Source of the DNA: Abditibacterium sp.
GTDB lineage: Bacteria; Armatimonadota; Abditibacteriia; Abditibacteriales; Abditibacteriaceae
Reading direction: 5' to 3'
Assembly (NCBI GenBank): GCA_965199495.1
Contig: CBDASK010000003.1
Coordinates: forward strand, 1,888,001-1,952,000
Length of the DNA: 64,000 nt
The position numbers were made by a program, and so were the translations under genes. The notes below the pieces were generated by a model. The model did not search any database, was not told where the DNA came from, and saw only the letters and a list, made by a program, of their open reading frames with translations. Below are positions 44,831 through 49,381 of this stretch, in pieces. How positions within the stretch are numbered: position 1 is the first letter of the stretch; each line of letters begins with the position of its first letter.

Positions 44831-47023
44831 GTGACCGTCGCACCTTCCACCGAAACCGTTAGTGAATCGCCCGAATTGCTCGCCGAATTGGAGCGCGTTT
44901 TCGGTTACACCGCGTTTCGCCCGCATCAGGAAGACGCGGTGCGCGCGGCGCTGGCGGGGCGCGATTGTCTGGTCGTGATGCCGACGGGCGCGGGCAAATC
45001 TTTAACGTTTCAGTTGCCCGCCGCGATCACGCCGGGCGTCACCATCGTGATTTCGCCGCTCATCGCTTTGATGCGCGACCAAATTATCGCGTTGCACGAG
45101 CGCACATCGTTTGTCGAAGAAGGCGCGTATTATCTCAATTCGTCGCAGTCGCAGGACGAACAACGCGACGTTTTAAGTTTGGTGCGCGCGGGCCGCGTGA
45201 AACTGCTTTACATCACGCCCGAACGATTGCGTTCGGGCGCGTTTTTGGATTTGCTGCAAAGCGTTAAAATCGCCAGATTAGTTGTGGACGAGGCGCATTG
45301 TATTTCGGAATGGGGCCACGATTTTCGGCCCGATTATCTGGCGATTAAAGATGTCGTCGCGACGTTGGGCGATGTGCCGCGTTTCGCAGTGACGGCAACA
45401 GCCACGCGGCGCGTGCAAGGCTCGATTGCCGAAAATCTGGGCATGCGCGAGCCGGAAATTATCGTCGGTGGATTTGACCGGCCCAACTTGCATTGGTCGG
45501 TCGTGCGCTGTAAAAACGACGCGGAGCGCGATAACAAATTATTCAAAGCTCTGCCGAAATTGATGTCGCGCGGCGGGAGCGGTTTGATTTATGTTTCGAC
45601 GCGCAAAGTCTGCGAAAAAATCGGCGAGTTGGCGCTCAACGCTTTGGCGCCGCTCGGCATTCGCGCGGGCTGTTACCACGCGGGCATGGAGAACGAATCG
45701 CGCTCGAAAATGCAGGAGGCGTGGTTGCGCGGCGACATTCCGGTTTTGGTGGCGACGAACGCGTTTGGCATGGGCATTGACAAGCCCGACGTGCGATTTG
45801 TCGTGCATTACGGCTATCCCGAATCGCCCGAATCGTATTATCAGGAAGCGGGCCGCGCCGGGCGCGACGGCAAAAAGGCGCGCGTTTTCGTGTTGAGCGT
45901 GCCCGCCGCCGACCGCAAACTGCGCGAATGGTTCATCACCAACGAAGCCATCGAAGCCGACGATTTTCAGAAAGTCGTGCAGAAATTGGGACGATTGGCG
46001 GGCGGCGAAGCGGTGCGCGTGCCGAGTTATTGGTGGGATCAGGAATTGGCGTGGCGCGAACCCAAACCGCGCGTGGTTTTGTCGCGCCTCGAACGCGCCG
46101 GTTTGCTCGAACGCTTGAGCGAAACGCCCGAAGGCATCGAACTGCGGCCAACCGTGAAATCCATTCCCGCCAATCAGATGGGCGAACTGCGGCGCGGATT
46201 GGAGCGCGATCTCAACGAACGATTCGAGCGCCTCAACGAAATGGCGGGTTACGTCAAAACCATCGAATGTCGGCGCGCGGCGCTGATCAATTATTTCGGC
46301 GACGCCGACGAATTTATCGGCGGCGGCGAAGGTTGCTGCGACAACTGCGACGCGCGCGCCAAAGGCATTGACCTGAGCGCGCGAAGTCCCAAAATGGCCC
46401 AGGGCCGAGTCGAGGCGCCCTCGCAAATCGGCGATATTTACGAACTGTTGCAGGCGCTCGATGCTTTATGGCCGAGCGTGGGCAAAACGCGACTGGCAAA
46501 AATTCTGCGCGGCTCCAACGCCGCCGATATGCAGCGCTATCTGGACGCGCCGGTTTATGGCGCTTTGCGCGGTGTTTCGGTCGCCAAAACCAACACGTTT
46601 TTGGAAGAATTACTCGACCGCGCGCTCTTGCATCAGGGCGACGAAGACGAATATTATGTCGTCAACGTGACGCGCGCCGGACGCGAGGCGTGGGAAGCGC
46701 GCGCCGGTGTGGACGATTTGGAATTGCCCGGACAAACCCGGCGTGGCTCCAGTTCGGCGCGGCGCGCCAGTTCGTTCGCGAATGATGACGACGACACCCT
46801 CGATGGCGTGGGCGGCGCGCTCTTCGAGAAGCTGCGCAACTGGCGCAGCGCGCGCGCGCGCGAAGAAAGCGTGCCGCCTTATATCGTGTTCGGCGACAAA
46901 GTTCTGCGCGAAATCGCGCGCCAACGCCCGTCGGATTTAGACGAATTGGGCGAAATTAGCGGTATCGGCCCGGCGAAATTAGATAAATACGGCGAGTTAG
47001 TTTTGGAATTATTGAGTGAATAA
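44831..47023 (+). CDS. recQ: RecQ-family helicase with RQC-like and HRDC domains
   Basis: MPTGAGKS, DEAHCISEWGHDFRP, AFGMGIDK, QEAGRAGRDG, CRR...YFG...CCDNC, PPYIVF. Confidence 0.92.
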   Translation: MTVAPSTETVSESPELLAELERVFGYTAFRPHQEDAVRAALAGRDCLVVMPTGAGKSLTFQLPAAITPGVTIVISPLIALMRDQIIALHERTSFVEEGAYYLNSSQSQDEQRDVLSLVRAGRVKLLYITPERLRSGAFLDLLQSVKIARLVVDEAHCISEWGHDFRPDYLAIKDVVATLGDVPRFAVTATATRRVQGSIAENLGMREPEIIVGGFDRPNLHWSVVRCKNDAERDNKLFKALPKLMSRGGSGLIYVSTRKVCEKIGELALNALAPLGIRAGCYHAGMENESRSKMQEAWLRGDIPVLVATNAFGMGIDKPDVRFVVHYGYPESPESYYQEAGRAGRDGKKARVFVLSVPAADRKLREWFITNEAIEADDFQKVVQKLGRLAGGEAVRVPSYWWDQELAWREPKPRVVLSRLERAGLLERLSETPEGIELRPTVKSIPANQMGELRRGLERDLNERFERLNEMAGYVKTIECRRAALINYFGDADEFIGGGEGCCDNCDARAKGIDLSARSPKMAQGRVEAPSQIGDIYELLQALDALWPSVGKTRLAKILRGSNAADMQRYLDAPVYGALRGVSVAKTNTFLEELLDRALLHQGDEDEYYVVNVTRAGREAWEARAGVDDLELPGQTRRGSSSARRASSFANDDDDTLDGVGGALFEKLRNWRSARAREESVPPYIVFGDKVLREIARQRPSDLDELGEISGIGPAKLDKYGELVLELLSE

Positions 47024-47065
47024 ACTGGACGCTTGGAACACGGTTAAGAGCCTTGTATGTTAATA

Positions 47066-47246
47066 GTAGGGGCAAGAGTGACGCCGATAAGAGCCTGAGC
47101 TGCTTGCAAGCTGTTGGATAGAATTGCGCCTCTTGTCCCTGTTCTTTTTTGTCTTTTCAAGCCGGACAGTATCTTGAGCCGTTGCGAGTTGTGACTTGCA
47201 ACAGAGTTCGCATTGACAAGGCTGGCTGCAAGATAAAAACAAGAAC
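47066..47246 (+). ncRNA. IS110 bridge RNA (target-binding and donor-binding loops); ends approximate
   Basis: TAAGAGCCT 47088-47096, TTGGATAG 47114-47121, ACAGTATCTTG 47166-47176 and ACAAG 47216-47220 match the target and donor; closing stems ggggcaagag/ctcttgtccc and agccgg/ctggct. Confidence 0.85.
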
Positions 47247-47278
47247 CCCTCGGTTTCCCTTTGTTTGAGGAGAATCTC

Positions 47279-48283
47279 ATGTTTTTAGGAATAGACGTTT
47301 CCAAAGCGACTCTCGATGCCGCGTTTCTGTCCACCCCAGACGCCGCCAAAACGCGCCACAAAGTCTTCGCCAACACAGAGCAAGGCCATCAACTTCTGCT
47401 CGACTGGTTGCAAGAGCTGCCTTCTACCAGTGCAGAAGCGCCCACATCCGCGCCCACGCTTCACGCGTGTTTAGAAGCCACCGGCATCTACGGCGATGCC
47501 CTTGCGCGCGCGCTCCACCAAGCCGGGCATCTTGTCTCGGTTGTGAACCCCGCTGCCGTGCGTGCCTTTGCCAAAAGCCAGCTCAAGCGCACCAAAACCG
47601 ACAAAGCCGATGCGCAACTCATCGCCCGCTTTTGCGCTTTGCACCGGCCCGCGCCCTGGAAGGCGCCCGCGCCGGAGATCGAGCATCTGCAAGCTCTGGT
47701 GCGCCGCATCGAGACGCTCCAGGAGATGAAGCAGATGGAAGCCAACCGCCTGGAAGTGACCTCCTGTGAGGTCGTTCAACACTCGTTGCGCTCTCACATC
47801 GACTATCTCGAACGGGAGATCGGGGCGACCAAAGACCAGATCAAAGAGCACATCCAGGCGCATCCTGAGTTGAACGAATCCGTGCGTTTGCTCTGCTCGA
47901 TTCCTGGCATCGCTGCGGCCACAGCCGCATTGATCCTGGCCGAGTTGGGCGAGATCGCGCAGTTCGAGAACGCGCGCCAGGTCGCGGCGTTTGCCGGATT
48001 AGCGCCGTGTTTGCGCGAATCGGGTTCGAGCGTGCGCGGCAAGCCGCGCCTGTCTAAGGTCGGTTCGCCGCGTCTGCGCAAAGCGCTCTTTTATCCGGCG
48101 ATGACGGCACTGCGCTGCAATCCCGTGATTAGCGAGTTGAAGCAACGTTTGACCCAGGCTGGCAAGTGTAAAATGCTGATCTTGGGTGCTGCGATGCGCA
48201 AGTTGCTGGTGTTGGCCTATGGCGTGCTCAAGTCCGGTCAGCCCTTCGATGCCGAGTTTTGTGCGCAGGGGCTGAAAAATTAA
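47279..48283 (+). CDS. IS110 family recombinase/transposase
   Basis: GIDVSK, CLEATG, KTDKADA, SIPGI, SGSSV...SKVG...LRKALF; GAGGAG RBS before ATG 47279. Confidence 0.96.
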   Translation: MFLGIDVSKATLDAAFLSTPDAAKTRHKVFANTEQGHQLLLDWLQELPSTSAEAPTSAPTLHACLEATGIYGDALARALHQAGHLVSVVNPAAVRAFAKSQLKRTKTDKADAQLIARFCALHRPAPWKAPAPEIEHLQALVRRIETLQEMKQMEANRLEVTSCEVVQHSLRSHIDYLEREIGATKDQIKEHIQAHPELNESVRLLCSIPGIAAATAALILAELGEIAQFENARQVAAFAGLAPCLRESGSSVRGKPRLSKVGSPRLRKALFYPAMTALRCNPVISELKQRLTQAGKCKMLILGAAMRKLLVLAYGVLKSGQPFDAEFCAQGLKN

Positions 48284-48294
48284 CGCCAAAACTC

Positions 48295-48315
48295 TTGACG
48301 GCCAACACAGTATCT
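48295..48315 (+). promoter_or_regulatory. -35 box of the IS110 circle-junction promoter
   Basis: After circularisation via the CT core, TTGACG (48295-48300) lies 17 nt from TATGTT (47056-47061). Confidence 0.75.
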
Positions 48316-48465
48316 ATCCAAATAGGAAAACCAGAATGCGACTGAGCGATGGGAGCGGGGCTGGCGCACCCTTCCAATCTGGCGTAAGTCCGAGGAAAGT
48401 CCGCCGATTGGAAGAGTGCGTCAGCCCCGCATCTTCAATACTTCGCGTCCTATTCGGATAGGTTC
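48316..48465. mobile_element. Body of a ~156-bp MITE whose left TIR is split by IS110 (its first bases are 47048-47053)
   Basis: Rejoined left TIR GAGCCTATCCAAATAGGA versus right TIR 48448-48465 (revcomp GAACCTATCCGAATAGGA), 16/18; TAA at 47045-47047 and 48466-48468; long internal hairpin. Confidence 0.75.
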
Positions 48466-48505
48466 TAAATCGCGCGCTGTCAGACGTTGGTAAAGGAGAA
48501 TCCAA

Positions 48506-49381
48506 ATGCGACATTTTTTCACTTGTTGTGCCGTTACGCTGCTGACCACTCTGGCGGCTCATGCAGCCACGCCGACGGCGGCGTTACAATTAATGCCCGC
48601 CAAAGCCATTAGTTTGCGCTGGCAGAAACTGCCAACCGACACTGATAACGCGGTTTGGCTACATATCTATTGCGTGCCCAAAAGCCGCGACCCCGAATTG
48701 AAAAACATGGGCGTGGACGAAACTGGCCCGATTACACGCGCAAATATTACAAATGGCCCGTCGTTGGCGTCGTCGCCGTTCTGGCTCGATGTTTTCGCCG
48801 ATGCCAACGCCAAGCGGCGCTTGAATTCGGTCAAATTCGAGGAAGGTCACGATGTGCAAGACATCACATTGCGCTGGCTCGAACCCAAATCGCGGCGCGG
48901 CCCCGTCGTGCTGATGAAGTTTGGTTACACGCATTGGTATGAATGGCAAACCTTTACTTTCGCGCAGGGCTGGACGAAACCAGCGCACGCGCAAACCTTT
49001 TTCTATGGCGGCGAAGGCGAAATTTATAACGATCTCCGTTTCGACCGCACCGACGCGCAGGGCCATTTAATCGTCGTCGAAGATGAAGGTCTGGAAAACA
49101 ACAAAGAGCGCACCAATATCTATCGCTGGAATGGGCGCGAGTGGGACGATAAAACATTGAAATATTTCGTGGTCGGCGCTTCGGTCAAAACCAAAAGCGC
49201 CGCCGACGAGATATTGCGCAAGCGTGGTTACGGCGAAGTTTTGCGCTCGAACGATTATCCTAAATTAAGTCCGGGCTATTGGATTTGGATTACAGGACGG
49301 TTTCGCACCAAAGCCGAAGCCGACGAGATCGTCGCGCATCTGGATAAAAATACGCCCGCCGTCGTGCGGCTGGCGCGCTGA
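48506..49381 (+). CDS. Secreted hypothetical protein with a SPOR-like C-terminus
   Basis: AAGGAG RBS; signal peptide ending AHA; L.S.DY..L.PGYW...G.F....EA. Confidence 0.75.
   Translation: MRHFFTCCAVTLLTTLAAHAATPTAALQLMPAKAISLRWQKLPTDTDNAVWLHIYCVPKSRDPELKNMGVDETGPITRANITNGPSLASSPFWLDVFADANAKRRLNSVKFEEGHDVQDITLRWLEPKSRRGPVVLMKFGYTHWYEWQTFTFAQGWTKPAHAQTFFYGGEGEIYNDLRFDRTDAQGHLIVVEDEGLENNKERTNIYRWNGREWDDKTLKYFVVGASVKTKSAADEILRKRGYGEVLRSNDYPKLSPGYWIWITGRFRTKAEADEIVAHLDKNTPAVVRLAR

Follow-up and report, generated by a model that had tools for sequence, protein, structure and literature searches.

An IS621-type IS110 element of Abditibacterium whose predicted bridge RNA is probably aimed at the ends of IS5-family elements and MITEs

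The window analyzed here, a 64,000-nt stretch of the genome of an Abditibacterium species, contains what is probably an intact and recently mobile IS110 element of the IS621 type, with a bridge RNA directed against the termini of IS5-family elements and of their MITEs. The element occupies the gap that follows a RecQ helicase gene (44831-47023). On the sequence evidence, its target is the 3-bp duplication together with the terminal inverted repeat of a 156-bp IS5-type MITE, which the insertion interrupts (Table 1).

Table 1. Features of the element, its predicted bridge RNA and the interrupted MITE, in window positions.
Feature	Position	Strand	Remarks
Left target TAAGAGC	47045-47051	+	TAA target-site duplication of the MITE (47045-47047) and the first 4 bp of its terminal inverted repeat
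IS110 element, IS621 type, CT core to CT core	47052-48315	+	1264 bp including both cores; second copy 100% identical
CT core, left junction	47052-47053	+	
Right donor TGTAT	47054-47058	+	As in IS621; TGTATGTT is 47054-47061
-10 hexamer TATGTT of the putative circle-junction promoter	47056-47061	+	
Predicted bridge RNA	47068-47246	+	Ends inferred from folding and the consensus of left ends
Target-binding loop with enclosing stem	47068-47140	+	
Left target guide TAAGAGCCT	47088-47096	+	Pairs 9/9 at both occupied sites
Right target guide TGGATAG, natively 7 nt	47115-47121	+	7/7 at the window site, 5/7 identities at the second site
Target-loop handshake guide AA	47122-47123	+	AU in IS621
Donor-binding loop with enclosing stem	47141-47246	+	
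Left donor guide ACAGTATC, 8 nt	47166-47173	+	
Right donor guide, split	47212-47220	+	AT (47212-47213), two looped-out bases, ACAAG (47216-47220)
Donor-loop handshake guide GC	47221-47222	+	GU in IS621; complements target positions 7 and 6
Recombinase gene, 334 aa	47279-48283	+	GAGGAG at 47267-47272
-35 hexamer TTGACG of the putative circle-junction promoter	48295-48300	+	
CT core, right junction, read with left donor ACAGTAT	48307-48315	+	ACAGTAT 48307-48313, CT 48314-48315
Remainder of the interrupted MITE	48316-48465	+	
Rest of the left inverted repeat of the MITE, ATCCAAATAGG	48316-48326	+	Includes right target ATCCA (ATCCAA 48316-48321)
Inner hairpin repeat of the MITE	48357-48428	+	
Right inverted repeat of the MITE	48449-48465	+	
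TAA, target-site duplication of the MITE	48466-48468	+	Direct repeat of 47045-47047

By every sequence test of membership, the element belongs to the IS110 family and to the IS621 type; the family had already been named in an earlier sequence-only reading of this DNA. The recombinase scores 241 bits against NF033542 (IS110 family, cut-off 140), and PF01548 and PF02371 are both found in it, corresponding to a RuvC-like DEDD domain and a Tnp domain with the serine in a single protein. Alignment places D6, E66, D108, D111 and S248 at the positions of the IS621 catalytic residues D11, E60, D102, D105 and S241. The only solved structures found as relatives are IS621 and ISCro4 (E of 9e-71 for ISCro4), and identity to the IS621 protein of an E. 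coli record is 46% (148/324). Assignment to the IS1111 group was rejected: the RNA of that group lies downstream of the gene, and here the guides are within the 225 bp of non-coding end upstream (47054-47278), the right end being 32 bp (48284-48315).

Laying the IS621 scaffold from the Durrant supplement on the window, together with alignment to IS621, provided the guide map of the predicted bridge RNA. The sequence-only reading had drawn two loops in the left end, one of them as stem-enclosed, and folding and covariation bear this out. The region 47060-47250 folds into two stem-enclosed loops (z = -3.2), none of 200 shuffles being equally stable. In a consensus of 12 left ends, whose rows are related and which counts as support and not as a statistic, both stems are kept, 15 of 31 pairs show two-sided changes and the guides are unpaired. 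A search of Rfam with 46800-48700 returned 0 matches at E up to 1, which is uninformative.

A string check of the window found every string quoted in the sequence-only reading where it had been placed, and the donor that was given there as that of IS621 is identical to ACAGTATCTTGTAT in Supplementary Table 2 of Durrant 2024. That reading also had all four guides matching the element's own target and donor. The matches hold; the lengths required revision, the left donor guide being 8 nt, not 11, and the right target guide 7 nt. The last three letters of the 11-nt left donor guide ACAGTATCTTG (47166-47176) fall on a linker of the IS621 scaffold, and the base after ACAGTATC varies freely (T 15, C 9, A 5 and G 4 in 33 parsed elements; C where run X2 has a near-identical element). 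In the 8-nt version of the right target guide, TTGGATAG (47114-47121), the initial letter likewise falls on a linker position. The split in the right donor guide and both handshake pairs had been missed. When the ends are circularized they read ACAGTAT-CT-TGTAT and place TTGACG and TATGTT 17 nt apart, as had been noted earlier; 0 sigma-70-like sites were found in the linear region 46800-48600. The joined ends contain a putative promoter assembled at the circle junction.

The target loop of the window element fits its own flanks at 12/12 non-core positions and the flanks of 27 other elements at no more than 8/12. Among 20,000 random genomic CT sites, 0 reach 12 and 2 reach 11. Related loci were taken at an identity of at least 38% with near-full coverage, giving 57; both ends could be parsed in 34, enough right flank was available for 33, and these comprised 28 distinct target loops. 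The 28 loops fit their own flank at a mean of 10.0/12 and foreign flanks at 6.9/12 (permutation of flanks; the kin are not independent), and in 14 of the 28 the own flank is better than all 27 others. Target guides that track insertion flanks across orthologs in this way agree with the natural retargeting proposed earlier. It is extremely improbable that the guide matches arise from chance or from an assembly artefact, a reading for which no supporting point was found. Chance is opposed by the null sites, none of which attains the window score, and by the advantage of own flanks over the 28 loops. An artefact is opposed by run X1, in which the contig with the element covers 47044-48317, the exact stretch common to both copies in the source genome, and breaks where the copies diverge.

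The second of these copies lies in the source genome (G000) at C3:732300-733563 on the - strand and is identical to the window element (100%) along all 1264 bp. With the element taken out, its site reads TAAGAGC-CT-ATTTAC, with the same 11-nt target as the window site and unrelated outer flanks; the flanks of other copies had been named as a check in the sequence-only reading. The second site differs from the window target at positions 12-14, with 11/14 target positions matching; two of the differing positions could pair with the guide as G-T. The core dinucleotide CT is present at both ends of both copies, and there is no further duplication. The exact 11-mer target is empty at three places in G000, and no empty exact 14-mer was found in that genome. 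At G000:C3:3233484-3233529 a 46-bp palindrome holds two empty perfect 11-nt targets back to back. G000 also carries a C-terminal remnant of another IS110 recombinase (C3:3106505-3106741; 51% identity over 78 aa). In the window, the MITE is directly followed by an ORF of 291 aa (48506-49381, + strand) that begins like a signal peptide and gave no match in Pfam.

We considered whether the letters could be intact and bridge recombination nonetheless lost, the element spreading passively, for example as a passenger of the MITE when an IS5 transposase moves it. The TAA-GAGCCT that is kept at the left junction after insertion is in line with this. Neither the joined circle form nor the empty form was seen in four contig sets, although contigs drop rare forms and cannot show absence. 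In run X2, from a separate study with a near-identical element, one contig matches from 47045 after 47 unlike letters and another matches up to its end at 48326; the two contigs need not represent one copy. The element is followed by the same MITE end but preceded by a different flank, a pattern that could equally come from a composite move. However, the sequence outside the 11-mer differs to the left and to the right between the two G000 copies, themselves 100% identical, and transport inside a MITE cannot produce this; nor is there damage to the catalytic residues, the promoter halves or the guides. We therefore regard passive spread as very unlikely and favor an element moved by its own recombinase. 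The earlier description of the element as intact holds for the recombinase ORF, catalytic residues, promoter halves and guides as sequence, and at that level only.

Without the element, the window site consists of TAA, GAGCCTATCCAAATAGG, the inner hairpin, CCTATTCGGATAGGTTC and TAA, with 156 bp between the direct TAA repeats. The features of a MITE are present: it is short and non-coding, with terminal inverted repeats, dispersed copies, a 3-bp duplication and an end in common with autonomous IS5 elements (in genomes G001 and G012). A 3-bp TWA repeat is a mark of the IS1031 group. A probe for the MITE end found five facing pairs in G000, 53-162 bp apart and including that of the window. Three of the five have an exact 3-bp direct repeat, and one is an intact sibling of 162 bp, the length of the window site with its repeats once the element is removed; an empty sibling lies at G000:C3:1876885. 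A degenerate end pattern is present in 7 of 13 genomes of the genus (reversed control, 0). One of the same genus, G001, holds an autonomous IS5 of 892 bp (C523:1-892), both frames of which exceed the NF033580 cut-off. Its ends, GAGCCTATCCCAGTAGG with TTA repeats, are identical to the MITE end at 15/17 positions and match the guide-read target at 12-13/14; it is a single copy on a contig edge. Exact 3-bp direct repeats flank the G001 and G012 elements as well.

An autonomous IS5 with the end of the MITE was not found in G000 among seven DDE_Tnp_1 and two DUF4096 matches. The two IS5 copies of this genome carry GAGTCTGTGCTCG ends, which match the guides at 8-9/14. The DDE insertion sequences at G000:C3:685616, 1159088, 929992, 2527593, 3261955, 3853136 and 4412874 are the two IS5 copies, with GAGTCTGT ends, and a two-copy and a three-copy element with inverted repeats of their own. 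At the second occupied site a clear partner repeat was not found. The extended end there is without a sibling in G000 and gives background-level matches only in the 13 genus genomes.

An ortholog in G012 (L020), 59% identical and broken by a stop and a frameshift, appears to be an independent case of IS5-MITE targeting with a right guide changed to fit. It lies at TTA-GAGC^CTGTCTTC, the end of a MITE with TTA repeats (site TTA-GAGC^CT-GTCTTC), and its right guide, AAGACAG, is complementary to that end. Two 930-bp elements and one MITE of 208 bp in G012 terminate in this end as well. The 930-bp element tested is an IS5 by best family match, each frame scoring below the whole-protein cut-off. 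A search of 401 genomes of the phylum for the junction pattern of this targeting matched 14, of which 12 did not show IS110 ends; left ends of IS110 elements with the pattern occur only in G000 and G012, and a wider clade identified in this way was rejected. Elsewhere in G012 (C1:6183403-6183594; L122, L164) a left end with a drifted bridge RNA, without a recombinase gene behind it, stands at TGA-GAGT^CT, resembling an IS5 end.

REP is the target of IS621. With element and mechanism unchanged, the window target could likewise belong to a family of REP/REPIN-type palindromes and resemble an IS5 end only secondarily. The inner hairpin of the MITE belongs to a family of 73-92 bp found at 48357-48428 of the window and at 57 other places in G000:C3 (58 paired copies), standing alone or nested within several different inverted-repeat shells. 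Both occupied sites lie 20-40 bp from such a hairpin, one empty perfect 11-mer is the 46-bp palindrome described above, relatives in G004 use GTAG...CTAC doublets, and G000 lacks an autonomous IS5 bearing the end of the MITE; all of this is in line with a REP-type target. However, the guides match the outer end and not the hairpin, the majority of hairpins lack that end, and the 3-bp flanks are direct repeats. The same ends are carried by autonomous IS5 elements in G001 and G012, and no such hairpin was seen in the G012 MITE. We consider a REP-type target unlikely and retain the IS5-type end as the target. A mobilizer of the hairpin family was not found in G000. No RAYT source for the inner hairpin emerged from the four RAYT-sized Y1 matches inspected, which are flanked by other repeats or by none.

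By analogy with IS621, the element would leave as a circle, and its joined ends would build a sigma-70 promoter driving the bridge RNA. A recombinase tetramer with RuvC-Tnp composite sites would then hold target and donor in the two loops. Cleavage beside CT through serine intermediates, a Holliday junction and integration without loss of bases would follow, as described for IS621 in the accessible text of PMC11208160, PMC11208158 and PMC13626964. The left guide would read the IS5 duplication TAA together with the 6 bp that open the inverted repeat, from where the right guide would continue inward; the site form expected under IS5-end targeting is TWA-GAGCCTAT. With both duplication and inverted repeat read in this way, the element would land in a dispersed, intergenic and self-renewing site, and since the duplication of the prey is included, integrated IS5 and MITE ends would be the substrate. 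Insertion would split the inverted repeat of the MITE after 6 bp and probably stop the MITE from moving.

Under the handshake rules in the accessible parts of PMC11208158 and PMC13626964, the handshake bases of the window element form 0 Watson-Crick pairs before exchange and 3 after it (1 and 3 in IS621). Insertion should therefore be favored over excision, and the setting is predicted to be biased accordingly. Co-adaptation of the donor-loop handshake was rejected: GC occurs in 9 of 33 rows, 6 of them with other target bases. Excision itself might proceed by copy-out, in which recognition by the donor loop only ('half-match') yields a single-stranded circle and the donor site stays filled. 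Such a route is reported for IS621 in the accessible text of bioRxiv 10.64898/2026.08.31.748434; the donor loop alone supports excision in vitro, according to the parts available of PMC13626964, and the two filled sites here, with the empty form absent from contigs, are in line with it. The same parts of PMC13626964, however, record detection of both the circle and the post-excision junction for IS621. We regard copy-out as possible but somewhat doubtful; it concerns the excision step only and is compatible with the IS5-end reading.

Among the relatives, the donor, the TTGAC spacing and the split right donor guide are conserved and the targets change. Of the 34 elements parsed, 30 have TTGAC with a spacing of 16-18 nt. 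Five G004 copies (two rows) form the sister group of the window protein in a tree of 29 rows, and the G012 element falls within the same 5-row clade (support 97/97). These G004 copies (L014, L043-L046), the nearest relatives at 69-72% identity, each lie at the end of a GTAG...CTAC doublet, which we take to be REP from the GTAG mark. Targeting of IS5 ends is therefore not a trait of the whole clade, and the tree placement suggests that it was either ancestral in a small clade and then lost, or gained twice. In the G004 elements, target and donor have the same base at position 7; in IS621, such a handshake would be expected to impede the reaction.

The flanks of nine further rows of the family earned them the label attC-like, which follows the attC consensus; empty sites were reconstructed for seven of the nine. 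Loci L015, L016, L018, L019, L027, L047 and L051 (G011, G013, G014, G022 and G025) are IS621-type, 55-62% identical, carry the same donor and are inserted in attC-like sites (AAC...GTT hairpins). Near the opposite end of the same attC-like sites lies a second IS110 type with another donor and other guides (L023, L026, L048, L049). In L017 (G020:C1 near 2349000) the bridge RNA is interrupted by another insertion with an IS5-like end.

The window element resembles IS621 of E. coli, as described in the accessible parts of PMC11208160 and PMC11208158 and in PDB 8WT6, in its left-end bridge RNA with two loops, its CT cores, an identical 14-nt donor, the split right donor guide, DEDD plus serine, the junction promoter and a repeated, intergenic target. 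It differs in protein sequence (46% identity), in its target, TAAGAGCCTAT(CCA) against ATCAGGCCTAC, and in the nature of that target, an IS5-type MITE end and not REP. Its right target guide is natively 7 nt, the first base of ACAAG is A where IS621 has G, and the handshakes are AA/GC against AU/GU. The 5' segment of IS621 is unaligned, and a longer target-loop stem replaces it in the window element. ISCro4/IS622 (PDB 9T56), given as 88% identical to IS621 in the accessible text of Perry 2025 (bioRxiv 10.1101/2025.05.14.653916), shares clade and architecture, but neither it nor IS621 is close to the window protein.

It is the published rule for this clade that targets change naturally while the donor is conserved, and mobile-element targets (Tn21 ends, IS3 genes, attC) are already known. 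The Tn21-end IS, reportedly described by Partridge and Hall in 2003, is RNA-guided like the window element and enters the terminal repeat of another mobile element; it is of the IS1111 group, with a downstream RNA, sub-terminal repeats and Tn3-family prey, whereas the window element is IS621-type, its probable prey is of the IS5 family and its guide spans the target-site duplication of the prey. ISEc21 (IS3-family transposase genes), ISKpn4/ISPst6 (attC), and ISPa11 and ISPpu9 (REP) are IS110-family elements aimed at mobile or repeated DNA, in target classes other than IS5 ends. The accessible parts of Siddiquee et al. (PMC11187229) describe natural retargeting, an IS110 whose targets are IS3-family genes, and members of the IS1111 group that insert at attC, REP and Tn21 ends; in the literature as available to us, attC targeting is reported only for IS1111-group elements. 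Durrant et al. (PMC11208160), in the text available, pair targets with guides in thousands of cases and note that the right target guide is longer in some orthologs.

In the literature searched, which excluded ISfinder, most subscription papers and bioRxiv supplements, no report of an IS110 at IS5 or MITE ends was found. The window target is absent from the searchable Durrant supplements (the 72 orthologs of Perry lay outside this search), and five TWAGAGCCTGTTTAAA matches in the Durrant target list come from other elements and do not fall at the core. The recombinase is a singleton in an unnamed 90% cluster. Matches among 8,000 scored candidates comprise at least 7,133 similar proteins, the best of them 67-70% identical and unnamed or called 'transposase'. 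As far as these searches reach, the ortholog is probably uncharacterized, as had been supposed. What is added to the earlier account is the identity of the target as an IS5-type MITE end, which a specialist might not expect.

As a tool, the element is a further ortholog for bridge-recombinase screens, 46% identical to IS621 and far from ISCro4, with the same donor. The accessible parts of PMC11208160, PMC11208158 and PMC13626964 report three engineered changes that raise insertion by IS621: a right target guide of 7 nt, a right donor guide of canonical form and a donor-loop handshake that fits the target. The window element has all three natively, which is a reason to test it and not a sign of superiority, because its donor-side traits recur across the clade (ACAAG in 24/33, GC in 9/33) and similar proteins number at least 7,133.

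For the biology of the family, we tentatively suggest, as a possibility that we hold to be rather less than even, that a small IS621-type lineage preys on IS5 transposons. Its left guide would take only integrated IS5 and MITE ends, the prey would be immobilized or ridden, and the right guide would be retuned in each host; together with the REP-doublet and attC-like sisters found within the same bacterial family, this would amount to guide switches among three kinds of repeat with one donor. The finding would add IS5-family ends to the kinds of DNA at which IS110 guides are aimed, and may offer a system in which the targeting of one mobile element by another can be followed through a readable RNA guide.
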